Source: Jiella pelagia
GTDB taxonomy: Bacteria > Pseudomonadota > Alphaproteobacteria > Rhizobiales > Rhizobiaceae
DNA length: 24,000 nucleotides
Assembly (NCBI RefSeq): GCF_026898155.1
Contig: NZ_CP114029.1
Span: forward strand, 5,349,072 to 5,373,071
Reading direction: 5' to 3'
Part shown: one piece after another, positions 310 through 17,923 of the stretch
Numbering within the stretch: position 1 is the first letter of the stretch
Layout of the letters: the number at the start of each line of letters is the position of its first letter
The notes under the pieces: model-generated
The model's input: the letters and a program-made list of their open reading frames with translations, nothing else
The model's database searches: none
Told to the model about the DNA's origin: nothing
Translations under genes and position numbers: made by a program

Positions 310-1026
310 CGAATGCAGCGACAAAGCTCGACGTCGCCCGGATGAACGCCTTCTACGGGCCGATCCAGATCCTCTTTGATGTCGGCTTCTCCGTCGGTCG
401 CGGCGAGGTGGTCGCCCTTCTCGGCCGCAACGGCGCCGGCAAGTCGACCACCTTCAAGTCGCTGATGGGCCTCGTCGACCGGCGCGAGGGCAAGATCCGC
501 TTCGAGGATGCCGAGATCTCCCGCCAGCCGACCTACGAGATCGCCCGGCGCGGCCTCGGCTACGTGCCGGAGGACCGGCGGGTGTTCGGCGAGCCTCACC
601 GTCGAGGAAAACCTTGAGGTCGGCCGCCAGCCGGCTCGCGACGGCGTCACCTCCTGGACGCCGGAACGCCTCTACGCGCTATTCCCCAACCTTGCCGAGA
701 TGCGCCGGCGGCCGGGCGGCCAGATGAGCGGCGGCGAGCAGCAGATGCTGACGATCTCGCGCACGCTGATGGGCAACCCTTCGCTGGTGCTTCTTGACGA
801 GCCGTCGGAAGGTCTCGCGCCGAAGATCATCGAGCAGATGGCCGAGGCGATCCTCGCCATGAAGCGCGAGGGTCTCAGCATTCTTCTGTCCGAGCAGAAC
901 CTCCACTTCGCCCGGCTGATCTCCGACCGTGCCTATATCCTTGAAAAAGGGCGCATCCGCTTTTCCGGGACGATCGCCGAACTCGAGGCGAACACGGCGG
1001 TGCGCGACCAGTATCTTGCCGTCTGA
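306..1026 (+). pseudogene. LivF-like ABC transporter ATP-binding protein, interrupted by a +1 frame break near 591 (real pseudogene or assembly indel)
   Basis: The ORF at 306-617 carries Walker A (GRNGAGKST) and ...GYVPEDRRVFG. The ORF at 508-1026 in the next frame carries SLTVEENL, the ABC signature MSGGEQQML, Walker B LVLLDEPSEGLAP and the tail RDQYLAV. Skipping one nt at about 591-596 joins them into one roughly 240-aa protein with the same spacing as E. coli LivF (VPEGRRVFSRMTVEENL). Confidence 0.85.
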
Positions 1027-1035
1027 CGGGACACC

Positions 1036-1545
1036 ATGACGCACTCCCCGGACGCCGAGATCACCCTCACCGTCAACGGCGCGAGCCATCGCCTTGCCGT
1101 TCCCGCCACGGCGCCGCTCTTGGCTGTCCTGCGCAACGATCTTCACCTGAACGGCTCGAAATACGGCTGTGGCCTCGGCCAGTGCGGCGCCTGCACCGTC
1201 CTGATCGACGGCATCGCGGCGCGCGCCTGCACGATCCCGGCGGGTTCCGTCGCCGGCCGCAGCATCGTCACCCTCGAAGGCCTTTCCAAAGACGACAGGC
1301 TTGATCCGGTCCAAGAGGCCTTCGTCGCCGAACAGGCTGCCCAATGCGGCTACTGTCTGAACGGCATGATCATGGCGCTGAAGGCGCTGACTCTCCGCGA
1401 GGTCGCCCCGGACGAGGAGATGATCCGCGAGGCACTGCGCTACAATCTCTGCCGCTGCGGGACGCATCTGGAGATCCTCGCCGCCGCGCGGCGGGCCTGT
1501 GGTCTTTTGCCGGGCGGAGAACCGGCCCCGAGGCCGGCCCGATGA
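1036..1545 (+). CDS. (2Fe-2S)-binding small subunit of a molybdenum hydroxylase (IorA/NicA-like)
   Basis: 169 aa. Cys patterns of two 2Fe-2S clusters are present: CGLGQCGACTV...C and QCGYCLNG...CRCGTH. There is no twin-arginine signal. The stop overlaps the start of the next gene (ATGA at 1542-1545). Confidence 0.9.
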   Translation: MTHSPDAEITLTVNGASHRLAVPATAPLLAVLRNDLHLNGSKYGCGLGQCGACTVLIDGIAARACTIPAGSVAGRSIVTLEGLSKDDRLDPVQEAFVAEQAAQCGYCLNGMIMALKALTLREVAPDEEMIREALRYNLCRCGTHLEILAAARRACGLLPGGEPAPRPAR

Positions 1546-4500
1546 CGCAGGAGCGGGAGCCTGTTTCGACGGATGGCGGACTCGTCGTCGAGCGCATCTC
1601 TGCTGGCGGCTTCATGGAGACATTCCTCGTCATCCACGCCGACGGCCACGCCACCGGCTACAACGGCCATGTCGATCTCGGCACCGGCATCCGCACCGCC
1701 CTCGCCCAGATCGTCGCCGAGGAACTCGACGTCTCGGCCGATTCCGTCGCGATGGTGCTCGGCGACACCGCCCGCACGCCCGACCAGGGTCCGACGATCG
1801 CCAGCGAAACGATCCAGGTCGCGGCCGTCCCGCTGCGCCAGGCGGCAGCGACGGCACGGCGGGTTATCCTCGCCCGCGCCGCTGCGGTTCTCGACGTGTC
1901 GCCAGAAGAACTGCAGATCGACGACGGCCTCGTCTACGCGCCCGCCAGCAATCGCCGCCTCGGTTTCGGCGAACTTCTCGCCGGCGAGACGATCCGCGTG
2001 GCTCTCGACGAGAACGCCCCGGTCAAGGCGCCGGAGAGCTACCGGCTCGTCGGGACGTCACAGCCCCGCGTCGACATTCCGGACAAGGCGACCGGCCGTG
2101 CGATCTACATCCACGACGTCCGCGTGCCGGGCATGCTGCATGGCCGGGTCGTGCGCCCGCCCTATGCCGGGCGTGACAGCGGCGACTTCATCGGCAAGAG
2201 CCTGATCGCCGTCGACCGCGGCTCCGTCGCCGCGCTGCCGGGTTTCGTCGATCTCGTCGTCATCGGCGATTTTGTCGGCGTGATCTGCGAGCGCGAGGAA
2301 CAGGCGGCCGAAGCAGCCCGCCGGTTGAGGATCGAATGGACCGTCCCGCCGCCGCTGCCGGACATGGACGATCTCGCCGAAACACTGAAGAATCATCCCG
2401 GCGAGCCCCGAACCCTGTCGGAGAGCGGCGACGTCGACGCCGCCCTCGAAGGCGCAGCAAACCGGCTGACCAGGCGCTATGTCTGGCCCTATCAGATGCA
2501 TGGCTCGATCGGGCCTTCCTGTGCGGTGGCCGATTTTAGCGACGGCTTCCTGACGCTGTGGTCCGGCACCCAGAACCCCCACATGCTGCGCGGCAACCTT
2601 GCGACGCTTCTCCAGCTTCGGCCGGAATCGATCGATATCCGCCGACATGAGGCCGCCGGCTGCTACGGCCGCAACTGCGCCGACGACGTCAGCGCCGATG
2701 CCGCGCTCCTGTCCCGGGCCGTCGCCCGTCCCGTGCGGGTGCAACTTACCCGAGAGCAGGAGCACGCCTGGGAGCCGAAGGGCGCGGCGCAGCTGATCGA
2801 GATCGATGGTGGTCTTGGTGAGGACGGCGACCTCGCCGCCTACGACTTCCAGACCCGCTATCCCTCCAATCGCGGGCCCAACCTTGCTCTGCTTCTCACT
2901 GGCGCGATCCCGCCGGACCCGCAACCGTCCGACATGGGCGACCGCACCGCGATCCCGCCCTACCATTACGAGGCCGAGCGAATCCGCGTCCACGACATGG
3001 CGCCGATCGTCCGCGCCTCCTGGATGCGCGGCGTCTCGGCCATGCCGAATTGCTTCGCCCATGAGAGCTACATCGACGAGCTTGCCACCGAGGCCGGCGC
3101 CGATCCCGTCGACTTCCGGCTGAAGCACCTGAAGGACCCGCGCGCCGCCGAACTCGTGCGGGCGACGGCAGAGCGCGGCAACTGGGTCGAGCGCAGCGGG
3201 CCGCGACGCACGAGCGACGGCAGGGGCGACGGCGAGACGCTCTACGGCCAGGGCTTCGCCTATGCCGTCTATGTGCACGGGCCCTTTCCCGGCACGGCCG
3301 CCGCCCATGCCGCCTGGATCGCCGAGGTCGCGGTCGACAGGCGCACTGGCGAGGTGGCGCTGGAACGGGTCGTCGTCGGGCACGACGCCGGCATGATGAT
3401 CAATCCTGCCGGCGTCCAGCACCAGATCCACGGCAACGTCGTCCAGTCGGCGAGCCGGGTGCTGAAGGAAGAGGTGACGTTCCAGAACTCCACCGTCGAA
3501 AGCCGCGACTGGGGCAGTTATCCGATCGCCAACTTCCCGGAGGTGCCGGACGTCGACGTGTTGATGCTGCCCCGCCCGGCCGAGCCGCCGCTCGGCGTCG
3601 GCGAATCCGCCTCGGTGCCGAGCGCCGCGGCGATCGCCAATGCCATTTTCGACGCGACGGGCGTGCGGTTTCGCGAGCTGCCCTTCACGCCGGAGCGGAT
3701 CAAGGCCGGCCTCGATGCGGCGGCGGGGGTGGGCTCCGGTCCATCCAGGCTGAGCGAGGCTTCCCCCGAAGGGGCGAAACCCTCGGCCCCCGACCGCCCA
3801 AAGCTCTGGCGCCGGCTGGCAGCGCCGCTCGCCGCCGGCCTCGCGGCCACGATCGGCACCGCAGCCGTTGGCCTGACGCTGCGGGCGCCGATCGCCCCGG
3901 TCGCGCCGTCAAACCCGTCAGTCTATTCCGCCGAGACCCTCGAACGCGGCCGCATCCTCGCCGCCCTCGGCGACTGCGCCGTCTGCCACACCGCCCCCGG
4001 CAGCGCGACCAACGCCGGCGGGCGGGCGATCGAGACGCCCTTCGGCACGGTCTTCTCCACCAACATCACGCCGGACCCGGAGACCGGCATCGGCGGCTGG
4101 TCCTATCCGGCCTTCGCCCGGGCGATGCGCGAGGGCGTCTCCCGCGACGGCCGGCACCTTTATCCCGCCTTTCCCTATACGTCCTTCGCCAAGGCCACCG
4201 AGGCGGACCTCCAGGCGCTCTACGCCCATCTGATGGGGCAGCCGCCGGTGCGCGCCGAAACGCCGGTGACGGCCCTCGCCTTCCCGTTCAATATCCGCGC
4301 ATTGATGGCCGGCTGGAACACGCTGTTCCACAAGGCCCAGCCTTTCGCCCCCGACCCCGCACGGGGTGCTGCTTGGAACCGCGGCGCCTATCTCGTCGAA
4401 GGGCTCGGCCACTGCAGCGCCTGCCACTCGCCGCGCAATGCGCTTGGAGCGGAACAGCGCGGCGCAGCCCATCTTGCCGGCGGCCTCGTCGACGGCTGGC

Positions 4501-5126
4501 AGGCGCCGGCTCTCGGCAGGGCGAGCGACGCGCCGGTACCGTGGACCGAGGACGCGCTCTACGCCTATCTCAGGACCGGCCGTTCCGCCGAACATGGCGC
4601 CGCCGCCGGGCCGATGGCGCCCGTCGTCGCGTCCCTGGCAGAACTTTCCGACGAAGACATCCGCGCAATGGCGGTCTATCTTTCAGCCGATGGCGAGACT
4701 GCGCCGCGGACCGATGGCAGAGCGTTGGCGGAAAAGCTCGTTGCACAGAGCGAGGCGGACATCCGCCCGGCCCGCAGCCTCGGCGCCCGCCTCTATGACG
4801 GGGCCTGCTCCGTTTGCCACCGCGGCGAAGCGCAAGGCGTGCTGTTCAACGCTGGAACGCCGCTGGCCCTCACAACCGCCATTCATGCCGAGCGGCCGGA
4901 CAATCTGATCCAGGTGATTCTCACCGGCGTTGAGCCAGCGCAGAGCGGCGTGCACAGCGCCATGCCGGCCTTTTCCGAGACATTCACCGACCGGCAGATT
5001 ACCGAACTCGTGCGCTACCTCCGCAGCCAGTTCGCCCGTGACCGTCCCGCCTGGCGGGACGTCGAGACGACCGTGGCAAGCGTTCGCCATTCGAAGACCC
5101 GGCCTGCGCAGAGCAGCGGACAATAG
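1542..5126 (+). CDS. Molybdopterin-binding large subunit fused to a tri-haem cytochrome c domain (NicB-type architecture); substrate unknown
   Basis: The ATG at 1542 is in frame with the long ORF 1344-5126 and is translationally coupled to the upstream gene. Aa 1 to about 725 resemble an IorB/aldehyde-oxidase Moco subunit (GTGIRTALAQIVAEELDV, MHGSIGPSCAVA, GHDAGMMINPAGVQHQIHGNVVQ, EPPLGVGESASVP). A hydrophobic helix KLWRRLAAPLAAGLAATIGTAAVGLTL lies at about 3801-3881. Three CxxCH motifs are in frame: CAVCH 3975-3989, CSACH 4413-4427 and CSVCH 4806-4820. Confidence 0.85.
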   Translation: MTQEREPVSTDGGLVVERISAGGFMETFLVIHADGHATGYNGHVDLGTGIRTALAQIVAEELDVSADSVAMVLGDTARTPDQGPTIASETIQVAAVPLRQAAATARRVILARAAAVLDVSPEELQIDDGLVYAPASNRRLGFGELLAGETIRVALDENAPVKAPESYRLVGTSQPRVDIPDKATGRAIYIHDVRVPGMLHGRVVRPPYAGRDSGDFIGKSLIAVDRGSVAALPGFVDLVVIGDFVGVICEREEQAAEAARRLRIEWTVPPPLPDMDDLAETLKNHPGEPRTLSESGDVDAALEGAANRLTRRYVWPYQMHGSIGPSCAVADFSDGFLTLWSGTQNPHMLRGNLATLLQLRPESIDIRRHEAAGCYGRNCADDVSADAALLSRAVARPVRVQLTREQEHAWEPKGAAQLIEIDGGLGEDGDLAAYDFQTRYPSNRGPNLALLLTGAIPPDPQPSDMGDRTAIPPYHYEAERIRVHDMAPIVRASWMRGVSAMPNCFAHESYIDELATEAGADPVDFRLKHLKDPRAAELVRATAERGNWVERSGPRRTSDGRGDGETLYGQGFAYAVYVHGPFPGTAAAHAAWIAEVAVDRRTGEVALERVVVGHDAGMMINPAGVQHQIHGNVVQSASRVLKEEVTFQNSTVESRDWGSYPIANFPEVPDVDVLMLPRPAEPPLGVGESASVPSAAAIANAIFDATGVRFRELPFTPERIKAGLDAAAGVGSGPSRLSEASPEGAKPSAPDRPKLWRRLAAPLAAGLAATIGTAAVGLTLRAPIAPVAPSNPSVYSAETLERGRILAALGDCAVCHTAPGSATNAGGRAIETPFGTVFSTNITPDPETGIGGWSYPAFARAMREGVSRDGRHLYPAFPYTSFAKATEADLQALYAHLMGQPPVRAETPVTALAFPFNIRALMAGWNTLFHKAQPFAPDPARGAAWNRGAYLVEGLGHCSACHSPRNALGAEQRGAAHLAGGLVDGWQAPALGRASDAPVPWTEDALYAYLRTGRSAEHGAAAGPMAPVVASLAELSDEDIRAMAVYLSADGETAPRTDGRALAEKLVAQSEADIRPARSLGARLYDGACSVCHRGEAQGVLFNAGTPLALTTAIHAERPDNLIQVILTGVEPAQSGVHSAMPAFSETFTDRQITELVRYLRSQFARDRPAWRDVETTVASVRHSKTRPAQSSGQ

Positions 5127-5490
5127 GAATACTGCCGGATCGCCCTTCTAAGCAGATGCCGCCGGGGATCGGTTCGGAAGGGCGATGGTGTCCGCTTGCA
5201 AGAATGGTCGCAAAGCCCGGAGCTTCGTCATCCCGGCCTCCTAGCCAAAATCCATTTTTCGGCGTCGAAGTGGTCTTTCGCTACGAGAACGATTTGCTGG
5301 CAACGACCTGAGAAACGACGTCGCGGATTTGCAATGGCTCCCGGGTCAAGCACGGGATGGCAAAGCGGTGAGGCTTCCACACAGTCTGCAACGTCGATGC
5401 GCCGCCGTCTGCGCGGGTCGGGGACGTGATGTGTGAATGCGGCAGGGCCGTACGCCGCAAGCCTAATGACCGCTGCGCACCTTTGCCCGA

Positions 5491-6072
5491 TCAGATCTGC
5501 TCAAGCGTCCAGCTGACGATTTCGCCGGAAATCTGGTCGAACGCCCTGTTGAGCGCCGCGACATAGACGTCGCTGCCGGTACCGCTGACCGGAGAGGAGG
5601 CTGAGAATATCTGCGTCTGCCGGACGGTGCCGTTGCGGTCGTTGAGCGTCTTCACCGAAATGTCGATCCGCGCCGTCGCAGCGCCCGACGTGTCGATCTC
5701 GAAGCGGCGGATCTCAGTGATCAGTTGATAATCGATTGCCAGCCCCTGACCCGGCACGCCGACGGCGCCGATCTGGCCGGTGTTCTCGAAGGCCTGCAGC
5801 AGCCGCAGCTGCACCATGCGCGGCAGCCGATCGCTCCATTGGCTCTGGGCAAGATACTGAATGGCATAGGGAGAGGTCTTGACGACGATCTTTTCGCTAT
5901 CGAGCGTCTTGATCGCGGTCGGTTCGGGGATGAGCAACTGTGCGCGGCTGCTGCTCTGCACCGAAACGTTGGTCGGCGAGGCGATCTCGAACGTGTCCGG
6001 CGGCACAGAGCTGCAGCCGGCGAGGAGACCCGCCACGAGTGCGGCAATCATTGGTAGCTTCACGCCGGTCAT
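5491..6072 (-). CDS. ABC-type transport auxiliary lipoprotein (DUF330 / PqiC-like)
   Basis: 193 aa from the ATG at 6072. The lipoprotein signal MTGVKLPMIAALVAGLLAGC has the lipobox LAGC, and a purine-rich GAGGGGA lies upstream. Size, and position directly after the MCE gene, fit the auxiliary lipoprotein family. The ORF-track extension to 6315 is Arg/Gly-rich and looks non-coding. Confidence 0.75.
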   Translation of the reverse strand: MTGVKLPMIAALVAGLLAGCSSVPPDTFEIASPTNVSVQSSSRAQLLIPEPTAIKTLDSEKIVVKTSPYAIQYLAQSQWSDRLPRMVQLRLLQAFENTGQIGAVGVPGQGLAIDYQLITEIRRFEIDTSGAATARIDISVKTLNDRNGTVRQTQIFSASSPVSGTGSDVYVAALNRAFDQISGEIVSWTLEQI

Positions 6073-6331
6073 CGTCGCGGTCGTCCCCTCTTCCAGCGGC
6101 GCGCGGACAGCATCGCCCGTCATGCGCCTGGAAGCCCGCCGGTTCGGCAGGCTGCCCCGTTGCTTGCACCCGCAACCGAGCCTGTCAATTGCACCGAAGG
6201 CCGCGCCCCTGCGCGCGCCCACACAAACTTCCGCGGCGGGACGAGATTGCCACAAGACAGCCGTCCAACCCGGCGTTTGTCGCGGCCTCTTGGCCGCGTT
6301 CGAGCCCGGAGCCAAGGCGGCGTGACGGCGA

Positions 6332-9145
6332 CTAACGCCGCGTCCGCCCGTCGTACTGCTTCACGTCGTCGCCGCCATAAAGAATGCGGCTTGGGTTGGT
6401 GGAGAAGTCGGCGACCGCGTCGTCGATCCGGTCGACCGTCCGGGAGAGGCTGCGCATCAGCGACTGGAAGTCCTGCAGACCCTGGCTGGAGAAGCGCTGC
6501 AGGTTGGCCGAGATCGGCGTCACCTGCTCCTGGATCGACTGCGCCGCCCCGCGGACCGACTGCAGGGCGCCCGCGAGGTCGGAACCCAGCTGGGTGCCAT
6601 TGCCGGCTCCTGCGAAGACGCCGTCGATCGACGTCAACACGCCGTCGATCTTCGCCGATGCGGTTTTCAGGCTGTCGCTGGTCGCCTGGACGTTTTCGAT
6701 GATGCTGTCGATCTGCGGCCGCTTGGCGCCGATGTCGGTGGCGACGCCGGCGATCGAGTCTGCTGCCCGGGCGACGTTGTCCGTCGCCGCCGAGACGTTC
6801 TCCACCGCCTGGTTCACCTTGCCGGGGTCGATGCTGGCGAGCAGCGTGTCGAGCTGCGCGCGCGTCTCGGAAAAGCCCTTGACCGCGCCGTCAATGGTCA
6901 GGACGGCGGAATTGACCCGTTCGACGATCGACTGGATTTCCGGGGTCTTCTCGCGCACGGCGTCGGTGATCGCGCCGACATTGTCGATCGACTTGTTGAT
7001 CATCGCCGTATCGAGAGAATCGACCACGCCCTTGGCGCTGTCGAGAGTCGAGTTCAGCTTGGTCGAGGCCTGGCTGACATTGGTGCTGATCGGGCCGAGG
7101 CTGGCGAGCAGCTGGTCGATGGCGTCGACGCGCTGGGCAACCGTCGTGGTGATCTGGTTGACGTTCTGCGCCGAGTTGGCGAAGCCGCTGATCGCCGAAG
7201 AGATCGCCTCCTTCTGCTGGTTCACCGTCTCGCTCACCGACGCGACGTTGGCCGCGGCGGAGGAGAAGGAGTCCACCGCCGTCGCGACCTTTTCCGGGTC
7301 CACCGCCGCCACCACGCGGTCGGCGTTCTGCAGCGTCGTGTCGAGGCTGTTGGCGACGCGGTTGGCCGTCTCCGTCAGCGGCGCGATGTTGGCGATCGCC
7401 TGGTCGATGTCCTGGCGGCGATCCGCCACCGTCTTCGTCACCTGCTCGACATTGGTCACGGCGTTCGACGCGCCCTGCACAATGGTATCGATCGCTTCGG
7501 ACTGGTCGCTCAGCTTCTGGCTGAGTGCTGCGGCATTGGTCGCCGTCGTCGACGCCCCGTCGAGGGTCGTCTGCACCTTCGCCGGATCGATCGCCGCAAC
7601 GACCTGGCGGGCCGAGCCGAGGGTCTCGTTCAGCGACGTCGCAGCCTGGCCGACCTGGTCCGAGATCGGACCGAGATTGGCCAGCGCCTGGTCGATCTCG
7701 CCGGAGCGCTGCGCCACGGTGGTGGTCAGCCGGTTGACGTTCTGCGCCGAGTTGGCAAAGCCGCTGATCGCCGACGAAATCGCTTCCTTCTGCTGGTCCA
7801 CCGCCTCGGTCAACGAGGCGACGTTCGTCGCTGCAGCCGTAACCTGGTCGAGCGTCTGCGACACCTTGGCCGGATCCACCGCCGCGACCACACGGTCGGC
7901 ATTCTGCAGCGTCACGTCGAGGCGGTTGGCCACCCGGTTCGCGGTGTCGGAAAGCGGCGCGAGATTGGCGAGCGTCTGGTCGATTTCCTCGCGCCGGTCG
8001 GCAACGGCCTTGGTGACGGTTTCAACGTTGGCGACGGCGTTGGACGCGCCCTGAACGATGGTGTCGATCGCTTCGGACTGGTCGTTGAGCCTCTGGCTGA
8101 GGGCCGCGACATTCGTCGCCGTTTGCGACACGCCGTCGAGCGTCGTGGAGACCTTCGCGGGATCGACGGCGGCGATCACCTGATCAGCGCCTTGTAGCGT
8201 CGTGCCGAGTTGGGTGGCGACGCTCGTCGCGGTGTCGGCGAATGGGCCGAGGGCCCCGATGAAGCGGTCGATCCCGTCGGCATTCTGATTGATCACGTCA
8301 CCGATCTTGCCGACGCCGTTCGCCGCCGACTGAACCGAATCCATGACGCTGCCGATCCGCTCCGAGCCTTCTCGGACATTCGCAGTCACCTGCGTGACGT
8401 TGCCGACGATCTGGCCGATTTCGTCGGTGTCGACTGCGGCAAGGATGTCCTGCGCTTGCTGGATCGCGCTCGGCAAGGCGTCTGCGACGTTGCGTGCGCT
8501 GACGGTCAGCGCCGACAGGCTGTCGACGAAGGAATCGATGTTGTCGGTGTTGCGGGCCAGCGCGGCGGTGAAGGTCTCGACGTTCTCCGACGTCTTGGCG
8601 ACGTTGGCGACGGTGGTCTGAACGCCGGGGCCGGCATCCTTCACAATGCTCTCGAATTCGCCGAGGATCGTGTTCGCCCGGTCGGCGATGTCGCGGGCCG
8701 TCGCCAGGATGTCGGTGACGTCCGAGGGATTGGCGCGGATGACGGGAGTGACACCCTGCTGCCGGGCCTCGTCGATGAGATTTTCACCTGTGGGATCGCC
8801 GCCCTTCAGTTCGACGAAGGCATAGCCCGTCAGGCCCTGGAAGCCGATATTGGCCTGGGTGTTCTCCTTGATGGGGATTGTGGGATCCACCATCGTCGTG
8901 GCGATGACCACGCCGGGATTGTTGTTGTCGATCCTCAGCGCAGTCACCTGGCCGACCGGCAGGCCGTTGAACAGCACCTGGCTGCCCTGCTGCAGGCCGG
9001 TCACCGATCCTTCGATTCGCACGAGAAGCGGCACGCGGTTGTCACCGCTCGACGAGAACACGCTCCAATAGGTGAAGCCGACCGCAAGGGCGAGGACGAC
9101 GAGCGTGAAGATGCCGACGCGGACGTAATTGGCTCTGGTTTCCAT
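6332..9145 (-). CDS. MCE/MlaD-family protein, 937 aa, with a very long repeat-built helical C-terminal extension
   Basis: N-terminal TM helix (VRVGIFTLVVLALAVGFTYWSVF). One MCE domain (VRIEGSVTGLQQGSQVLFNGLPVGQVTAL...GFQGLTGYAFVELKGG). About 780 aa of Ala/Val/Thr/Gln/Asn/Asp-rich sequence follow, then the conserved tail FSTNPSRILYGG. The start ATG overlaps the stop of the upstream ATPase gene (TGATG at 9143-9147). Confidence 0.9.
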   Translation of the reverse strand: METRANYVRVGIFTLVVLALAVGFTYWSVFSSSGDNRVPLLVRIEGSVTGLQQGSQVLFNGLPVGQVTALRIDNNNPGVVIATTMVDPTIPIKENTQANIGFQGLTGYAFVELKGGDPTGENLIDEARQQGVTPVIRANPSDVTDILATARDIADRANTILGEFESIVKDAGPGVQTTVANVAKTSENVETFTAALARNTDNIDSFVDSLSALTVSARNVADALPSAIQQAQDILAAVDTDEIGQIVGNVTQVTANVREGSERIGSVMDSVQSAANGVGKIGDVINQNADGIDRFIGALGPFADTATSVATQLGTTLQGADQVIAAVDPAKVSTTLDGVSQTATNVAALSQRLNDQSEAIDTIVQGASNAVANVETVTKAVADRREEIDQTLANLAPLSDTANRVANRLDVTLQNADRVVAAVDPAKVSQTLDQVTAAATNVASLTEAVDQQKEAISSAISGFANSAQNVNRLTTTVAQRSGEIDQALANLGPISDQVGQAATSLNETLGSARQVVAAIDPAKVQTTLDGASTTATNAAALSQKLSDQSEAIDTIVQGASNAVTNVEQVTKTVADRRQDIDQAIANIAPLTETANRVANSLDTTLQNADRVVAAVDPEKVATAVDSFSSAAANVASVSETVNQQKEAISSAISGFANSAQNVNQITTTVAQRVDAIDQLLASLGPISTNVSQASTKLNSTLDSAKGVVDSLDTAMINKSIDNVGAITDAVREKTPEIQSIVERVNSAVLTIDGAVKGFSETRAQLDTLLASIDPGKVNQAVENVSAATDNVARAADSIAGVATDIGAKRPQIDSIIENVQATSDSLKTASAKIDGVLTSIDGVFAGAGNGTQLGSDLAGALQSVRGAAQSIQEQVTPISANLQRFSSQGLQDFQSLMRSLSRTVDRIDDAVADFSTNPSRILYGGDDVKQYDGRTRR
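6836..8269. repeat. In-frame tandem repeat inside the MCE gene: a 288-bp (96-aa) unit organised as two 576-bp super-repeats (7694-8269 and 7118-7693), plus one further degenerate unit
   Basis: The landmark IDxxLAxLxP recurs at aa 293/389/485/581/677, and AAVDPxKV recurs at aa 325/421/517/613; each pair is exactly 96 aa apart. DQSEAIDTIVQGASNAV occurs at aa 355 and 547, and QQKEAISSAISGFANSAQNVN at aa 451 and 643, both 192 aa apart. The 65-nt stretch 8037-8101 differs from 7461-7525 at 7 positions. Confidence 0.85.
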
Positions 9146-10050
9146 CAGGCGGCTCCATCGGAGGGCATCGGCTGCGCTGCGGTTCCATGGTCGGTGACGA
9201 CCGTGCGGGCGCGCTTGCCGTGGAAATAGGATCTCACCCAGGGGTGATCGGATTGCAGCATGGTCGACAACGGGCCCTCGATCAGCACCTTGCGGTCGCC
9301 GAGAACGGCGATGCGGTCGCAGGCCTGGAAGAGGCTGTCGAGGTCGTGCGTCACCATGTAGACGCTGAGGCCCAGCGTATCGCGCAGCGTCATGATCAGC
9401 TGGTCGAAATCGGCGGCGCCGATCGGGTCGAGACCGGACGTCGGCTCATCGAGGAAGACGATCTCCGGATCGAGGGCGAGCGCCCTGGCGAGGGCGGCGC
9501 GCTTGATCATGCCGCCGGAGAGTTCGGACGGGTACTTGTCCGCCGCGTCCGGGGCAAGGCCGACGAGATCGATCTTGAGTCGGGTCAATTCGCGCATCAG
9601 CTTCGGCGACAGATCGAGATATTCGCGCATCGGCACCTCGATGTTCTCGGCGACCGTCAGCGCCGAGAACAGCGCGCCCTGCTGGAACAGAACGCCCCAG
9701 CGGCGCTCGACCGACAGCTTCTCTCGCTCGCTCGCCTGGTGGTAGTCGATGCCGAAGACCTCGATCTTGCCGCCCTGCTTGGGATTGAGGCCGAGAATGG
9801 TGCGAAGCAGCACCGACTTTCCCGCGCCGGACGGACCGACGAAACCGAGGATCTCGCCGCGACGCACGTCGAGCGAGAGGTTTTCGAGGATCTTCTTGGC
9901 TCCAAAGGCGACGTTCACGCCGCGCGCACGGATCAGCACCTCGCCCTGTGCCTGCGCTTGGGCGGCGTTCGCCGCAGAGCCTCCGTTGAGAGCCGTTCCG
10001 TTCTGGGCCGCAGGGTCGTGTGCCACTGTCTCAGAGCCCCATCGAGGCAT
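9145..10050 (-). CDS. MlaF-like ABC transporter ATP-binding protein
   Basis: Walker A GPSGAGKSV, Q-loop GVLFQQGALF, signature LSGGMIKRAALARAL, Walker B IVFLDEPTSGLDP and H-loop MVTHDLDS are all present. The start is uncertain: ATG 10050 overlaps the permease 3' end, TTG 10062 and GTG 10026 are alternatives. The N-terminal roughly 40 aa are low complexity (AAQNGTALNGGSAANAAQAQAQ). Confidence 0.88.
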   Translation of the reverse strand: MPRWGSETVAHDPAAQNGTALNGGSAANAAQAQAQGEVLIRARGVNVAFGAKKILENLSLDVRRGEILGFVGPSGAGKSVLLRTILGLNPKQGGKIEVFGIDYHQASEREKLSVERRWGVLFQQGALFSALTVAENIEVPMREYLDLSPKLMRELTRLKIDLVGLAPDAADKYPSELSGGMIKRAALARALALDPEIVFLDEPTSGLDPIGAADFDQLIMTLRDTLGLSVYMVTHDLDSLFQACDRIAVLGDRKVLIEGPLSTMLQSDHPWVRSYFHGKRARTVVTDHGTAAQPMPSDGAA

Positions 10051-11219
10051 AGAAGATCGCAAACAGGCCGTCCATGACGATGACGAGGAAGATCGATTTT
10101 ACCACGGACGCGGTGACGCGAAGGCCGAGGCTTTCGGCGCTGCCGCCGACCTTCATCCCCTCCAGCGCCCCGACGACGCCGATGACGATTGCCATGAAGG
10201 GCGCCTTGATCACGCCGGAGAAGACCGTGAACAGGTCGACGCTGGTTTGAATACCCTGCAGGAAGTTGGCGAAAGAGATGTCGGAATAGAGCTTCAGCGT
10301 CAGCATGCCGCCGAGCAGCGCCGCAAGATTGGCAAGAACCGTCAGGAGCGGCAGCGCGATGGTCAGCGCCAGGAGGCGCGGAAACACCAGGACGCTGATC
10401 GGGTTGAGGCCGATGACATGTAGCGCGTCGATTTCCTCGCGCATCTTCATCGAGCCGATCTCGGCGGTGATGGCGCTTCCCGAACGGCCGGCGATCATGA
10501 TCGCGGCAAGAAGCACGCCGATCTCGCGCAGCACCAGGATGCCGACGAGATTGACGGCATAGACCTCGCCCCCGAAGCGCCGCAGCTGGAAGGCCCCCTG
10601 CTGGGCGATGATGCCGCCGATCAGGAAGGTGATCAGGACGATGATGGGGATCGCCTTCACGCCCATCTGGTCGAGCTGGTTGAAGACCGCGGCCGGGCGC
10701 CCTCGGGTGCGACCGGTCAGGCGATTGCCGGCGCCGTAGATCGCCCCGCCGAGGACGTTGAGGGCGGCCACCAATTCGTCTCGGACGGCGTAGACGCCGC
10801 TGCCGACCGCGTTGGGAAAGGCAATCAGCGGGTTCGGACGCGTCTTCTCGGCTGCGGGAACATCCTTGTCCATCGCCCCGCGAACAGCCTCAAACAGCGC
10901 CTCGTCGCGCTTTGACACGCCGGCGAGCCTCGACCTTGCGGCGCCCATTGTCGAGATCGCGCGACAGACGTTCGAGGACGAAGGCCCCGGCGGTGTCGAT
11001 TCGGCCAACATTCGAGCAATCCACGGTGATCCGCTCGCCGAGATCGGAACGGGCGGTTTCCGACAGAAGGCTCTCGATGTCGCCGACGGTGCGCGCCAGC
11101 CAGTCGCCGCTGGCGACAAGCCGAACCCCGCCATCCCGCTTCTCGCCTTCGAGAACAGGTTTGACGGCAGACAGGCGACCGCGCTCGGCGGCCTCGTCGG
11201 GCTTCACAGCCTCCAGCAT
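10031..11219 (-). pseudogene. MlaE-family permease with an N-terminal MlaB-like STAS domain, interrupted by a +1 frame break near 10925-10931 (real pseudogene or assembly indel)
   Basis: The ORF at 10890-11312 encodes a STAS-like segment (GGVRLVASGDWLARTVGDIESLL...ITVDCSNVGRIDTAGAFVLERLSRDL). The ORF at 10031-11134 in the next frame encodes LAGVSKRDEALFEAV... followed by the MlaE core (REIGVLLAAIMIAGRSGSAITAEIGSMKMREEIDAL). Skipping one nt in GTCGAGGCTCGCC (minus strand) joins them. The start is uncertain: ATG 11219 is preferred, ATG 11282 and TTG 11312 are alternatives. Confidence 0.8.
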
Positions 11220-11387
11220 CGTCCCTCGATCCGCATCCGGCCCGCTTCTGGCTGCCGCCAAGTCCTGCCGACCATGGGTCATCCCGACGGTCGGCGGCGA
11301 TCGGTCGGCCAATCGGTTGCCACCCCCTTCACTGGCACAGGGCTTCGTGGGAATAAACCAAAGCCGTTTCCAGGGAGATCATTTACC

Positions 11388-12368
11388 ATGCCGCGTCGTC
11401 TTTCGGTCACAGTGGAACATTTTCCGCTTCGCGAGCCCTTTCGGATCGCGCGGGGCGTCAAGACCGAGGCGGCGGTGGTCACCTGTGAGATCGCCGACGA
11501 ATACGGCAGGGGCTGGGCGGAATGCGTGCCCTATCCGCGCTATGGCGAGAGCATGGACAGCGTTCTTGCCCAGATCGAGGGCGTCCGTCCGCTGATCGAG
11601 CGCGGCGGCTCGCGCGACAGCCTGGCCGCGGCGCTGGGCGCTGGCGCCGCGCGGAACGCCGTCGATTGTGCCCTCTGGGACCTCGAGGGAAAGTCGACCG
11701 GTGTGCCGGTCGCCTCGATCGTCTGCGGCGATACGCCTCGGCCGATCGAGACCGCCTACACGATCAGCCTCGACAGTGCCGCGGCAATGGCGGACGCCGC
11801 GCGAGCCTCCGGCCGCAAACTTCTGAAGATCAAGCTCGGCACCGACGACGATCGCGAGCGCATCCGCGCCGTCCACAGTGCGGCACGCGGGGCCCGGCTC
11901 ATCCTCGACGCCAATGAAGGATGGACCGAAGCCAATGTCGGGGACCATCTCCTGGCCGCTGCGGCTGCCGGTGCCATCCTGGTCGAGCAACCGCTGCCCG
12001 CCGGAAAGGACGCCATCCTCGGCAAGATTCCCCATCCGGTCCCGGTCTGCGCCGATGAATCCCTGCATGTCGGCGAAGACCTCGACAAACTCCTCGGCCT
12101 CTACGACTTCGTGAATATCAAGCTCGACAAGACCGGCGGCCTGACCGAAGCGGTCCGGCTGATGCGCGAGGCGCGCCAGCGGGGATTTGGCGTGATGGTC
12201 GGCTGCATGGTCGGCTCGTCGCTTGCCATGGCCCCCGCCATCCTGCTCGCCCAGACCGCCGACATCGTCGATCTCGACGGCCCGCTGCTCCTGGCGAAGG
12301 ATCGGCCGCATCCGCTCACCTATACCGGCTCGATGGTCTCGCCGCCCGATCCGCGCTTGTGGGGGTGA
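11388..12368 (+). CDS. Enolase-superfamily dipeptide epimerase (L-Ala-D/L-Glu epimerase-like)
   Basis: 326 aa from the ATG at 11388, with GGGAGA 8 nt upstream. Family motifs are present: KIKLG, ILDANEGW, VEQPLP, ADESL and NIKLDKTGGLTEA. The ORF-track extension back to 10812 is antisense to the permease gene and was rejected. Confidence 0.85.
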   Translation: MPRRLSVTVEHFPLREPFRIARGVKTEAAVVTCEIADEYGRGWAECVPYPRYGESMDSVLAQIEGVRPLIERGGSRDSLAAALGAGAARNAVDCALWDLEGKSTGVPVASIVCGDTPRPIETAYTISLDSAAAMADAARASGRKLLKIKLGTDDDRERIRAVHSAARGARLILDANEGWTEANVGDHLLAAAAAGAILVEQPLPAGKDAILGKIPHPVPVCADESLHVGEDLDKLLGLYDFVNIKLDKTGGLTEAVRLMREARQRGFGVMVGCMVGSSLAMAPAILLAQTADIVDLDGPLLLAKDRPHPLTYTGSMVSPPDPRLWG

Positions 12369-12462
12369 GGGTCGGCTACGCCACTGAGATTTGCGGCTCC
12401 ACGTCCGGCGGAAGCGCCCGGCGCCCCCCTCCCCAAGAGACTCGACCTCAGGCCGCAGCCCC

Positions 12463-14524
12463 TCAGATCGCCCCGATCTTCTCCCGCAGCCGTGCCTCGA
12501 CCTCCTCGCGCTGGCTTTTCAACGACGCGATCTCCCGATCGATCGCCCCGAGTTGGTCTTCCTGGTCACGCATCGCGTCGAGATACCTGTCGCGCAGATC
12601 CCCGGAATCCACGGCCTTGATGTTCTCGCGGATCCGATCCTGAGCGGCATAAATGTCCTGCTTCTGGCTGGTCAGAGTATCGATCTTGCGGTCGAGATCG
12701 GTCTTTTCGGCCTGGATCGCGGCAATCGCCTTCAACGCGGCCGAAAGCTCCGGATCGCCCGCCTGGCTGGAGAAGCGCAGGAGTTCGGACTGGCTGGCAT
12801 CGACCAGCGCAAAACCCTCGTCGCGCACGAAGCGGTAGGTGGCTTCGATGTCGCGGGTGCCGCCGGCCGGGATCACCGCCTCGAGCCGATAGGCGTCGGT
12901 GGTCTCGGCGACCCGGTCTTCCGAAATCAGCTGCCAGCCGGAAAGCTTCGGGTGATCGATGACGAGCTTGCGCTCCTCCGCCGCGGCATTTTCCGCCGTA
13001 TAGACCGTGTGGCGCTCCTGGATCGACTTGAAGCGGAGCACGCCGTCGACGACGCGCAGTTCGCTGATAAGCTCCTGTGGCTCTTCGGTGGTGTTCACCG
13101 TCACCTTGCGGTCGAGGGCGAACTGCACCTGCCGCTCCTGGCCCGCCGGCACCGGCAGAAGCGTCGAATCGCCGACATAGCCGGAGGCGTCGTAGACCGT
13201 GACGATCCCCGCCGGCAGGGCCGAGCCGGTCTCGTTGTCGAGCTGGACGGCGGCCGTCGGATGGATCTCGCCGCGCCCCGGCGTGAACACAGCGATCCGC
13301 TCGGCGGGCACATCCGCGTCGACCACCGGCACGGACAGCGTCGAGCCGGCATCGAGCGTCACCGGCTGCGGCAGCGGATAGGTGACGGAGACGTCGCCCT
13401 CGACCGCCTCGCCGACCTCGCTCGCCTCGCCGATCGAGAACTCGGCGGCCTCCGGCATGGGCGCGGCGGCCATCAGATTGTCGGCGAAAGCGGCGGCGCC
13501 GCTGACCGAGCGACTGGCCTTGGCACTCCGCGACGATGGGCTCGGCAGCGCTCCGCGGTCAGGTTCCGGAATCGATTGCCTGTCAACGAAGACAGGCACT
13601 TCCGGCCGTTCCTTGAAAAACGGGTCGAAGAGGTTCTGGCGCAGCGTCACCGGCGAGCCTGACGACAGCGCGACCTTCACGTCGTTCCAGTTCTCGCCGG
13701 TAGCGTTCTCGATCACCGCCCAGCTTTGCAGCCGGCCCTTGCCGTCCTTGCCGAGCACCAGACGGTGCGAGGACTTCCAGACGGGCGCTGCGACCACGTA
13801 GTCGAACTCGACGTTCCGCTCTCCCGTCCCGTCGACCTTCACCGAGACGAGGCGGCTGTCGTCGGACAGGCTGCGCGACAGCGACTGGACGGCCTTCTGC
13901 AATTCTTCGGCGGTCTTTTCGTCGAGGATCTCGACCGATGTGTCGGCGAAGACCGGCAGCGAACGGACCGAGCCGGTCTCGTCGAGGATCGCCACGATGG
14001 CGAGCGGCCTCTGCGCCTTCTCGGCACTATCGCCTGCAGGGGGCTGCGAGGTGCCGAGCACGGTTCCGGTCACCGAGCGGTCGCCCTCGATGCGCACCCG
14101 CGCGCCCTTCAGCTTGTTGAGGAGGAGCGGCAGCGAGATCGAGATCGGCCGGCGTGAACAAAGCGGCGCGCGACAGCTCCTGGGCATTGACCGAGCCTTC
14201 CAGCGTCACCTGCCCGACACCGCCACCCGGATTGCGCACGACGAGGCTCTTCAGGACGTCGTTGACCTGGTCGAGCGGCACCTCCATGCCGACCGTCGCA
14301 TCGCCTGAGACTTCGGCCGACCGGATGATCTCCGCGACGCCCCCCGAAAACAGCACGATCGAGCGGATGTCGCCGGTGCGCGTCGGCTCGGCGGAGGTCG
14401 CAACGGGCATATCCGCAGACTGGGCAGCCGGAGCGGCCGGATCGGACGTCTGAGCCCCGGCGAGCGCCGTGCTGGCCAGAAGCGCCGCGAAGGTGGCCGA
14501 GGCGATGAGATGGATGTTTCGCAT
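12463..14524 (-). pseudogene. Exported DUF4139-like protein with a C-terminal coiled coil, interrupted by a +1 frame break at about 14125-14155 (real pseudogene or assembly indel)
   Basis: The ORF at 14027-14542 gives the signal peptide MRNIHLIASATFAALLASTALAGA (ATG 14524, GGAGA upstream) and about 128 aa. The ORF at 12463-14187 in the next frame continues with LPLLLNKLKGARVRIEG... for about 560 aa and ends in a heptad-like region (DLDRKIDTLTSQKQDIYAAQDRIRENI...REIASLKSQREEVEARLREKI). The DUF4139 assignment is from memory of the family, not a search. Confidence 0.65.
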
Positions 14525-14738
14525 GTGATCTCCGAAAGACATGACTGTGACGCCAAACGCGCAACCGTCGAGAACTGCCCGATCCTCGCCGAAGACGTCG
14601 TAAGCCCCGAAGCCTCTTGCCTATGATTCATGGCGAGTTGAAGAAGGCGGCGGTCCCGGGACCAAGATCGTTTCCCGGCCAAACGCCCATGCCTTCGCGA
14701 CGCTTGCCTTCCGGGCGCGCTTGTTCGAATGTGCGGCG

Positions 14739-14990
14739 ATGGAGACCACCGACGCAACGAACCCCGCCCTGCCGGGCAACATCCTTGAGCGGGCGAAGGC
14801 TGCGGCAGATGCCCTGAACGCCGCGCTGCGCGAGGCGGCCCGCGAGGATGTCGCGCTGACGGTCGCCATTTCGACCGAGCCGCTGGAGCACGGCCAGCCG
14901 GGCCCGGAGGTGAGCGTCGTCGAAGTCATCCATCACGCCCATCAGGAAGGCACGCGGCCGGAGGATCTTTCCTCTGCCAACGACGACTGA
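14739..14990 (+). CDS. Hypothetical small acidic protein (83 aa)
   Basis: The ORF has strong third-position G/C bias like the neighbouring genes and a balanced, acidic composition (METTDATNPALPGNILERAKAAADALNAALREAARED...). The overlapping minus-strand ORF is Arg/Gly-rich junk. There is no clear SD and I recognise no family. Confidence 0.5.
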   Translation: METTDATNPALPGNILERAKAAADALNAALREAAREDVALTVAISTEPLEHGQPGPEVSVVEVIHHAHQEGTRPEDLSSANDD

Positions 14991-15173
14991 ACCGCAGCCC
15001 GGCGACGCGCAGGCTCCGGACGGCGTCCCCACCGACAGAGCGCCAGCCGGCCTCAAGCGCGACCACCCATTCCGCCGTGGCGACACCATCACGGGCAATT
15101 GACCCGGCGGGAGGTTTCCGCGCCGACGAGATGAGCGATTCTCTTCCCGGTCGAGACAACCGGAGAATTGCCG

Positions 15174-15590
15174 ATGAAAGCCGCGTCCACCCTCGTTCTA
15201 TGCGCCGCCCTCTTCTTCGCGAGCCCGCTTGCCGCCCGGGCCGACGATGCTGGCGACATCCAGGCGACCATCTCCGCCCAGCTCCAAGCCTTATACGCCG
15301 GCAACGGAGCCGAAGCCTATTCCCATGCCGCGCCGAACATCCAGGCGATATTTCCAAGCCCCGGGCAGTTCATGGGCATGGTCCAGTCGGCCTACGATCC
15401 CGTCTACCATTCGCAAAGCGCCGTCTTCGGCGCGCTGAGGCCGGAAGGGAGCGGGTTTCGGCAGGAGGTCCATCTCACCGACCGCAACGGCAAGAGCTGG
15501 GTCGCCAGCTACACGCTGCAGCGCCAGCCGGACGGATCGATGAAGATCACCGGCTGCAGCCTGCGAAAAGGCGACGACGTCGCGGTCTGA
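15174..15590 (+). CDS. Secreted DUF4864-like (NTF2-fold-like) protein of unknown function
   Basis: The ATG at 15174 lies 7 nt after GGAGA (15162-15166). The signal peptide is MKAASTLVLCAALFFASPLAARA. The mature part reads DDAGDIQATISAQLQALYAGNGAEAYSHAAPNIQ...YTLQRQPDGSMKITGC. Family assignment is from memory. Confidence 0.7.
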   Translation: MKAASTLVLCAALFFASPLAARADDAGDIQATISAQLQALYAGNGAEAYSHAAPNIQAIFPSPGQFMGMVQSAYDPVYHSQSAVFGALRPEGSGFRQEVHLTDRNGKSWVASYTLQRQPDGSMKITGCSLRKGDDVAV

Positions 15591-15629
15591 CGATCCCGGC
15601 CGCTATCAGTCGAGGCCGGAAAATTGGCG

Positions 15630-16764
15630 TCAGCCGAGCGGCGGCAGGTCGCCCTTCGCCCAGGCTTCCCGCGTTTCCGCCATGAAATCCCCAAACCGTC
15701 CCGCCGCGATCGCGGCGCGGATGCCGGCCATCAGCTGCTGGTAATAGGCGAGATTGTTCCAGGTGAGCAGCATGCCGCCGAGGGATTCGTCGGACCGGAC
15801 CAGGTGGTGCAGATAGGCGCGCGAATAATCGCGCGCCGCCGGACAGTCGGATTCCTCGTCGAGCGGACGATGGTCCTCGGCATGCCGGGCATTCTTCAGG
15901 TTGATCTTGCCGCGCCGCGTATAGGCGAGCCCGTGCCGCCCCGCCCGCGTCGGCATCACGCAGTCGAACATGTCGATCCCGCGCGCCACCGACTGGATGA
16001 TGTCGTCGGGGGTGCCGACGCCCATCAGGTAGCGTGGCTTGTCCCGCGGCAGGACGGGAAGCGTCTCGTCGAGGGTGGCCAGCATGACGTCCTGCGGCTC
16101 GCCGACCGCCAGCCCGCCGACGGCGTAGCCCTTCAGGTCCATCGCCGAAAGGCCTGCGGCCGAGCGCTGGCGCAGGTCGATCTCTGTGCCGCCCTGGACG
16201 ATGCCGAACATCGCCTTGCCCGGCTGATTGCCGAAGGCAATCTTGCAGCGCTCCGCCCAGCGCAGCGACAGCTCCATCGCCCGCTCGATCTCTGCCCGCT
16301 CCGCCGGCAGGCGGATGCACTCGTCGAGCTGCATCTGGATGTCCGAATCGAGCAGCCCCTGGATCTCGATCGAACGTTCCGGCGTCAGCGAATGGACCGA
16401 GCCGTCCACATGCGAGCGAAACGTCACGCCCTTTTCGTCGAGTTTTCGGAGATCGGCGAGCGACATCACCTGGAAGCCGCCGGAATCGGTGAGGATGGGA
16501 TGGGGCCAGCGGGCAAATTCATGCAGGCCGCCGAGCCGCGCCACCCGCTCGGCGCCGGGCCGCAGCATCAGGTGGTAGACGTTGCCGAGGATGATGTCGG
16601 CGCCGAGGCTCGCGCACCTGATCGAGATACATCGCCTTGACCGTGCCGGCGGTGCCGACCGGCATGAAGGCGGGCGTGCGCACCGTCCCACGAGGCATGG
16701 TGATATCGCCGCGGCGGGCTTTGCCGTCGGTGGCGGAAAGGCGGAAGGAAAATTGTTCTGTCAT
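15630..16764 (-). pseudogene. tgt: tRNA-guanine transglycosylase (queuine tRNA-ribosyltransferase), interrupted by a +1 frame break at 16605-16611 (real pseudogene or assembly indel)
   Basis: The ORF from ATG 16764 gives [52 protein letters not shown]. The next frame (ORF 15630-16691) gives [18 protein letters not shown]...[12 protein letters not shown]...GIVQGG...[11 protein letters not shown]...[11 protein letters not shown], which are the canonical Tgt motifs. Skipping one nt gives about 377 aa. Confidence 0.92.
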
Positions 16765-16828
16765 GATGGCGCTCCGGTAGCGCGGCCGGCGCGCGGTGGC
16801 AACGCGAGAAGCGCGCCAAACGTTCGCA

Positions 16829-17923
16829 TCAGCCGCCGGCACGCTCCAACAGGCAGGCGTCGCCATAGGAATAGAACCGATACCCGGTGGCGATCGCATG
16901 GGCGTAGGCGGCCTGCATCGTGTCCAGGCCCGAAAAGGCCGAGACCAGCATGAACAGCGTCGAGCGCGGTAGGTGGAAATTGGTCAGAAGCCGGTCGACG
17001 GCCCGGAAACGATAGCCCGGCGTGATGAAAATGTCGGTCGGCCCGGAAAACGGACGGATCACGCCGTCCTCGCCCGTGGCGCTTTCGAGGAGCCGCAGCG
17101 ACGTCGTTCCGACGGCGACGATCCGGCCGCCCTCGCGCCGCACGGCATTCAGCCGCTCGGCCGTCGCCTCGTCTACATGGCCGATCTCGGCATGCATCCT
17201 GTGGGCGCCGGTATCCTCCGCCTTCACTGGCAGGAAGGTGCCCGCCCCGACATGCAGCGTCAGGAAGGCCGTGCGGACGCCGCGCGAGGCAAACCGCTCT
17301 ATCAGCTCCGGCGTGAAGTGCAGCCCCGCGGTCGGGGCCGCGACGGCACCGCTCTCTTTGGCGAAGATCGTCTGATAGTCGTGCCTGTCGGCCTCGTCCT
17401 CCGGCCGCTTCGAGGCGATGTAGGGCGGCAGCGGGATGTGGCCGACGGCGGCGATCGCCTCGTCCAGCGCCGGTCCCGAGAGCTCGAAGCAGAGCGTCGC
17501 CTCGCCGCCCTCGCCGCGCTCTTCCACGACGCCGACGAGGCTCGCCATCGCGCAAGCCGTCTCCCGCTCGGCGCCGAAGACGATCCGATCGCCGACCCTG
17601 ACCCGCTTGGCCGGTCTGACGAAGGCCTTCCACCGTTCGGGCGAAAGCCGCATGTGCAGCGTCGCCTCGATCCGCGCGACGCCCTCGCCGTCGGCTGCGC
17701 CCTCGCGGCGACGCAAGCCGGAAAGCCGCGCCGGAATCACCTTGGTGTCGTTGAACACAAGCACGTCGCCGGGCTGAAGCATCTCCGGCAGGTCGCGGAC
17801 GTGGCGATCCGCCAACCCGCCGCCATCCCCAACGTGCAAAAGCCGCGCCGCTTCACGCGGCACGGCCGGCCGGAGGGCGATGCGCTCCTCCGGCAGTTCG
17901 AAATCGAAGAGATCGACGCGCAT
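16829..17923 (-). CDS. queA: S-adenosylmethionine:tRNA ribosyltransferase-isomerase
   Basis: 364 aa from the ATG at 17923. Motifs: [48 protein letters not shown]...[31 protein letters not shown] and [12 protein letters not shown]. The ORF-track extension to 18118 was rejected. Confidence 0.93.

Follow-up and report, generated by a model that had tools for sequence, protein, structure and literature searches.

Why should four genes within one 24-kb stretch of a bacterial chromosome each require the skipping of a single nucleotide, and why should three of the four breaks fall on the same short word? This question is raised by a window of 24,000 nucleotides (the whole stretch of DNA that was analysed; G000:C1:5349072-5373071) from the assembly of Jiella pelagia, which comprises 5.95 Mb in three contigs with 65% G+C. 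The word is GAGSCTC, that is GAGCCTC or GAGGCTC, a form of GAG-N-CTC, in which GAGCTC carries one base added centrally. Our results point to a systematic assembly artefact, the surplus base being in all probability not part of the DNA of the organism. We draw this conclusion because 1) frame breaks are bound to GAGSCTC throughout the genome; 2) the loss of GAGCTC matches the gain of heptamers; 3) the base is missing in relatives; 4) rpoB and rpoC are broken as well; and 5) the insertion is dyad-centred and symmetric. The same five lines of evidence support the explanation preferred in the initial annotation of this DNA, namely that sequencing or basecalling inserts a base specifically at the motif GAGCTC.

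Frame breaks on GAGSCTC in the window

A word search exactly recovered the eight GAGSCTC positions of the initial annotation (591, 8087, 9977, 10925, 11803, 14243, 16605 and 17537) as well as its single GAGCTC at 17480, and the description given there of the sequence around 591, 10925 and 16605 proved accurate. Eight heptamers are not unusual for the window, 7.1 being expected from composition. The single GAGCTC stands against an expectation of 13.4, and none of 100 shuffles had a count as low. Since the heptamers make up about 0.23% of the window, the probability that three of four frame breaks coincide with them by chance is about 5e-8. The three broken words and the open reading frame (ORF) pieces of their genes are as follows:

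591..597, plus strand: GAGCCTC, broken, in a livF-like ABC ATPase gene; one surplus central base
306-617 and 508-1026, plus strand: ORF pieces of the livF-like ABC ATPase gene
10925..10931, minus strand: GAGGCTC on the sense strand (GAGCCTC on the plus strand), broken, in a STAS-MlaE gene; one surplus central base
10031-11134 and 10890-11312, minus strand: ORF pieces of the STAS-MlaE gene
16605..16611, minus strand: GAGCCTC on the sense strand (GAGGCTC on the plus strand), broken, in tgt; one surplus central base
15630-16691 and 16519-16899, minus strand: ORF pieces of tgt

By sequence comparison the organism is placed in Jiella (Aurantimonadaceae), with J. pacifica and J. avicenniae as the nearest named genomes. 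Comparators were seven same-genus genomes at the tgt site, two of them (G002 and G006) over 234 kb and, as the best comparator, an independent contig, L130, which is 98.1% identical over 18.4 kb; it derives from short-read metagenome data and is available as ENA scaffold ERZ23495598 and among the Logan contigs of SRR15221253. Judged against same-genus genomes, all three heptamer breaks are true +1 insertions, in line with the original description, and those at 10925 and 16605 are +1 insertions against the 98.1%-identical L130 as well. At 591, both G002 and G006 read GA-ACTC, one base shorter, coding Gly-Glu-Leu-Thr and so keeping the Glu-Leu pair; LivF homologues at full length have 234-239 amino acids. 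At 10925, L130 has GAGCTC (window 10929) within identical flanks and encodes a single fused STAS and MlaE protein of 395 amino acids. At the tgt site, seven of seven aligned same-genus genomes are one base shorter, with GAGCTC in the two closest; GAGCTC is also found there (window 16608) in contigs L130 and L131, where a Tgt of 377 amino acids is encoded, and the flanks in L130 are identical. Orthologues are thus one base shorter at each broken site examined, the surplus base being absent from the 98.1%-identical contig at 10925 and 16605 and from all seven aligned congeners at the tgt site; these comparators are other strains.

The remaining five heptamers had been reported to lie in undisturbed frames. 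This was borne out by alignment, as no indel against L130 was found at any of the five. These words, and the only GAGCTC of the window, are the following:

8087..8093, strand n/a: GAGCCTC, genuine, in frame in an MCE-type gene of 937 amino acids; no indel against L130, with 937 amino acids in both
9977..9983, strand n/a: GAGCCTC, genuine, in frame in an ABC ATPase gene (9145-10062); no indel against L130
11803..11809, strand n/a: GAGCCTC, genuine, in frame; no indel against L130, and GAGCCTC kept in G006
14243..14249, strand n/a: GAGGCTC, genuine, in frame; GAGGCTC kept in G002 and G006
17537..17543, strand n/a: GAGGCTC, genuine, in frame; GAGGCTC kept in G002 and G006, its reverse complement being GCGAGCCTC
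17480..17485, strand n/a: GAGCTC, the sole one correctly written in the window; relatives have GAACTC, of equal length

The 9-mer GCGAGCCTC is shared by the breaks at 591 and 10925 with two undisturbed positions, 11801 and (as its reverse complement) 17537, at both of which it is read in frame and retained by relatives. Because an identical word is read in frame elsewhere, the local sequence lacks the information to skip a base. The argument by which programmed frameshifting had been called unlikely therefore holds.

Genome-wide loss of GAGCTC and insertion at its dyad centre

We examined the whole assembly for the same signature. Among the 64 palindromes of six bases, none was as depleted as GAGCTC, with 355 occurrences seen and 1,385 expected under a maximal-order Markov model; a test for such depletion had been proposed in the initial annotation. 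Its density is 6.0 per 100 kb in this assembly and 22-33 in two same-genus genomes; that of GAGSCTC (1,086 GAGCCTC and 1,103 GAGGCTC) is 36.8 per 100 kb, compared with about 20 in the same two genomes. The shortfall of the hexamer equals the surplus of the heptamers, at approximately 1,000 sites.

The link between heptamers and frame breaks was addressed by two tests. In an ORF-span test, the central base was deleted and a site was scored if the best spanning ORF gained more than 300 nucleotides. Such lengthening was found at 18.0% of 2,187 GAGSCTC sites and at 5.5-8% of the sites of 11 control heptamers not fitting GAG-N-CTC. GAGACTC (14.8%) and GAGTCTC (12.0%) behaved like GAGSCTC, and their raised values are the same insertion effect, agreeing with the error spectrum. 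The second test used the G+C content of third codon positions (GC3) and asked which codon phase holds the G+C-rich third position over 180 nucleotides on either side of a site. Among 876 strongly coding GAGSCTC sites, 554 were shifted by +1, 286 were unshifted and 36 were shifted by +2; as a share of all sites, +1 shifts amounted to 25% of the 2,189 GAGSCTC sites and to 1-3% of control-word sites. When all 7-mers were scanned without bias, GAGCCTC (z = 16.7) and GAGGCTC (z = 13.0) came top by ORF span, and the same two words came top by GC3-phase (z = 52.6 and 54.1), 63% of strongly coding GAGSCTC being +1-shifted in the latter scan against a background of 5.4%. The remaining top words of both scans were overlaps of these two, and no word stood out for -1 shifts in the 7-mer scans, gene-boundary motifs aside. 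The genome-wide association that the initial annotation proposed to test is thereby confirmed, with errors recurring at one short word far above background, as is characteristic of a motif-bound consensus artefact.

We further dissected the word itself. The +1-shifted fraction was 63% for GAGGCTC, 63% for GAGCCTC, 60% for GAGACTC and 49% for GAGTCTC, and it fell to 4-6% when any one flanking position of GAG...CTC was changed. Among the 7-mers that can be made by one insertion into GAGCTC, enrichment was seen only for the four words with the base at the dyad centre, insertions at other positions remaining at background. Other members of the broader BanII-type GRGCYC and HgiAI-type GWGCWC motifs, tried as wider recognition sequences, were also at background. 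Such sharp, enzyme-like specificity, with every one-position variant at 4-6% and an effect at the dyad centre only, is a further mark of a motif-bound consensus artefact. C and G, about equally frequent, together made up about 94% of the added central bases; the remainder were A and T, also about equal and much rarer. Words of five bases derived from GAGCTC by a one-base deletion showed no excess of -1 shifts (3.5-5.9% against a background of 3.9%), and their raised +1 values were overlaps with the heptamer. Counted by sense strand, shifted sites comprised 272 GAGCCTC and 237 GAGGCTC, so that the strands are alike; 470 of these 509 sites have the phase GAG/N/CTC, in which a +1 skip always gives Glu-Leu. 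The effect was uniform over all 500-kb bins of the chromosome and over both plasmids.

Essential genes are not spared. Outside the window, rpoB and rpoC (G000:C1:3967602-3975941) each lie in four pieces in successive +1 frames, and five of the junctions are on GAGCCTC (3968974, 3970667, 3972183, 3974938 and 3975707). Marker completeness of the three-contig assembly is 84.97%, compared with 93-100% in nine same-genus draft genomes. Codon-phase constraint, as measured by GC3-phase, is undiminished on either side of the breaks. Genuine pseudogenes would leave essential genes intact and show relaxed constraint in the broken ones; here rpoB and rpoC are broken and phase is kept.

Alignment to G002 and G006 over 234 kb gave a consistent picture: 55 of 109 isolated one-base insertions lay in GAG-N-CTC, none of 57 isolated deletions matched such a word in a relative, and 17 of 23 clear frame breaks were at motif sites. 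The number of affected sites was estimated in several ways. The Markov shortfall of GAGCTC gave about 1,030 and the density relative to two congeners about 1,000; alignment to relatives, with 45 unique motif insertions in 234 kb, extrapolated to about 1,140. A GC3 mixture estimate, which is biased toward coding sequence, reached up to about 1,400-1,500. We estimate a total of about 1,000-1,400, corresponding to some three quarters of true GAGCTC sites being miswritten. The whole assembly holds 2,380 GAG-N-CTC sites, and removing the central base at all of them neither gained nor lost a transfer RNA gene. The two copies of 23S ribosomal RNA (rRNA; G000:C1:450-3368 and 2146213-2149131) are identical and contain three GAGTCTC each, which are genuine and conserved in seven relatives; a blanket 'correction' of every GAG-N-CTC would therefore be inappropriate. 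GAGCTC was found in the rRNA operon neither of this genome nor of its relatives.

The fourth break and sporadic indels

The fourth frame break of the window lies off the heptamer, in a DUF4139-like gene:

14135..14140, minus strand: GAGATC, with one extra base; relatives have GAATC
12463-14187 and 14027-14542, minus strand: ORF pieces of the DUF4139-like gene

L130 shows GATTC at 14137 and encodes an intact DUF4139 protein of 686 amino acids. The site is part of a tandem GAGATC-GAGATC (window 14135-14146), the extra base falling in the first copy. As the GAATC of the nearest relatives is a GANTC (CcrM-type) site, an artefact at GANTC was considered and rejected: GAGATC and 39 words made from GANTC by one added base were not enriched for +1 shifts genome-wide, and the density of GANTC in the assembly equals that of relatives. 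Because there is no genome-wide insertion signal at these words, we class the fourth break as a sporadic one-base error or difference, outside the GAGCTC class. A similar break, off the motif at the word CTGGCTC, is found in rpoB near 3967890-3967925, and it follows that the assembly also has sporadic indels.

Two further differences from the 98%-identical contig were seen in the window. Three nucleotides (GGC) are missing at 17139 with the frame kept, and two nucleotides are missing at 12424 within a G-run; the latter, at a poly-G tract, may be a homopolymer length error. The MCE-type protein of 937 amino acids (window 6332-9145, minus strand) is internally repetitive, with units of about 576 bp: shifted by one unit, the 98%-identical contig matches itself at 78%, which fits a periodicity of 96 amino acids pointed out separately in the initial annotation. 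Three closed-looking contigs, a completeness of 85% and additional sporadic indels are indirect hints of an assembly from native long reads that had no short-read polishing.

Origin of the surplus base

In the mechanism that we propose, GAGCTC would be written as GAG-N-CTC, with the extra base at the dyad centre, by a sequencing or consensus step. This strain may possess an enzyme that modifies the hexamer; a long-read basecaller or consensus procedure whose training did not include the resulting signal would then add a base at the modified centre. A candidate modification is 5-methylcytosine (m5C) on the central C of both strands, which could be placed there by the single C5 methyltransferase of the genome. 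We consider a link to DNA modification likely, because a six-base recognition sequence, a dyad-centred position and strand symmetry are what is expected of a Type II modification of GAGCTC.

Artefacts of this kind are known in principle. In assemblies made from nanopore reads only, strain-specific modified motifs are documented to give rise to consensus errors by the thousand (PMC10687267; PMC11610573). As in the Jiella assembly, the errors described there (Chiou et al. 2023, PMC10687267; Lohde et al. 2024, PMC11610573) strike one strain-specific short motif and survive into the consensus; the published cases were tied to lineage-specific methyltransferase systems and were absent from orthogonal data. 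By comparison, the present form is unusually clean, in that a single base is inserted precisely at the centre of symmetry of a 6-bp palindrome. C5 methylation of this palindrome has precedents, since a C5 methyltransferase acting on GAGCTC is documented (M.Sgr13350I) and m5C occurs in GAGCTC context in a Patulibacter genome (PMC11954522). The palindrome recognized with this SacI-type specificity is identical to the one affected here, and Jiella holds one C5 methyltransferase gene. In contrast to M.Sgr13350I-type systems, the candidate enzyme is part of an MTaX1-Dcm(-Vsr) cassette and not of a classical restriction-modification pair.

The genome contains exactly one C5 methyltransferase gene, which encodes 412 amino acids (C1:1356649-1357947) in this MTaX1-Dcm cassette. 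Upstream of it, the MTaX1 gene (L031:2546-3875) is divided into two ORFs whose overlap contains a GAGCCTC (L031:3108), and MTaX1 is about 400 amino acids long in four other Alphaproteobacteria; the candidate modification cassette is itself struck by the artefact. The cassette is conserved with a patchy distribution (Xanthobacter, Methylobacterium, Sphingosinithalassobacter and Sphingomonas), and two of these four loci include a Vsr gene. The nearest homologues of the cassette (67-84% identity) come from scattered alphaproteobacterial genera, none of them Jiella, which suggests horizontal transfer. That this particular methyltransferase is responsible for the proposed modification is a tentative assignment, possible rather than probable.

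Several observations weigh against the proposed origin. The published nanopore errors are substitutions (purine for purine or pyrimidine for pyrimidine) at GCAGC, GCTGG or unnamed motifs, whereas the error here is an insertion. A rule in the flanking sequence dividing miswritten from the 355 correctly written GAGCTC was sought and none was found, so that about a quarter of the sites survive unexplained. A Sphingomonas genome with an 84% homologue of the methyltransferase has a normal GAGCTC count; it was perhaps sequenced differently, and it is the one homologue-bearing genome in which methyltransferase and motif count were compared. A search for a SacI-type endonuclease (Pfam RE_SacI) found none, but control genomes were also without a match, which makes this result little informative. 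In addition, the comparators are at most 98% identical and do not represent the same strain.

An artefact without any modification, arising as a sequence-context failure of basecaller, polisher or flow-based chemistry on unmodified GAGCTC, is the strongest competitor, and we hold it to be unlikely. It predicts the same genome-wide pattern, no methyltransferase could be linked to the motif, and the escape of about a quarter of the sites would fit an error rate near the consensus threshold. However, the need for each of the six bases and the abrupt drop to background for one-base neighbours resemble enzyme recognition and not a graded k-mer effect, and the dyad-centred, strand-symmetric position suits a symmetric modification. 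GAGCTC is a common word, and to our knowledge a chemistry-wide failure on it would strike every genome and be widely known; we found no published report of one.

Real insertions, produced for instance by faulty SacI-like nicking and repair at a GAGCTC mutational hotspot and leaving some 1,000 frameshift pseudogenes, are very improbable. The extra base is specific to the lineage of this assembly, as it would be after a recent mutational burst. Against this, rpoB and rpoC carry several breaks each and about 15% of marker genes would be lost from an otherwise closed genome, a load that no culturable bacterium could bear; moreover, codon-phase constraint is perfect on both flanks, with no decay following the supposed inactivation.

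Recoding of a real base at GAGSCUC, by +1 ribosomal frameshifting, a four-base codon or RNA editing, has a practically negligible probability: the common phase and the restored Glu-Leu would agree with it, but in a genome with high GC3 this phase is the one that GAG-CTC favours in any case, the near-equal sense-strand counts of the two heptamers together with the A- and T-containing words give no single mRNA signal, reading stays in frame at 66 strongly coding heptamers of that phase and also through GCGAGCCTC at 11801 and 17537, where relatives keep it, and the base is missing in relatives at 84-98% identity, hence there are no conserved recoding sites. Neither a sense-strand signal nor orthologue conservation was thus found. 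The resemblance to prfB-type +1 frameshifting or four-base decoding is that one base is skipped for a full-length protein; unlike those systems, the Jiella sites have no strand-specific signal, share identical words with in-frame positions, are unconserved and are spread over hundreds of unrelated genes.

With an assembly artefact as the favoured explanation, a public, closed-looking genome contains about 1,000-1,400 false frameshifts, rpoB and rpoC included. These lower marker completeness to 85%, and the truncated proteins will spread into protein databases. The error follows an entirely predictable pattern, GAG-N-CTC with a +1 phase shift, and can be flagged, or corrected from reads. For the biology of the organism, the livF-like, STAS-mlaE and tgt genes are probably intact in the cell, and they and about 1,000 other genes should be treated as such; the record supports no inference on pseudogenes, split STAS and MlaE modules or loss of queuosine. 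Incidentally, the pattern is suggestive of GAGCTC modification in this strain. With a base added and not substituted, there is a small chance that the modification chemistry is unusual (not plain m5C, N4-methylcytosine or N6-methyladenine), or that the MTaX1-Dcm(-Vsr) cassette, which is widespread in Alphaproteobacteria, is GAGCTC-specific; if true, the artefact would be a free read-out of the specificity of that system.

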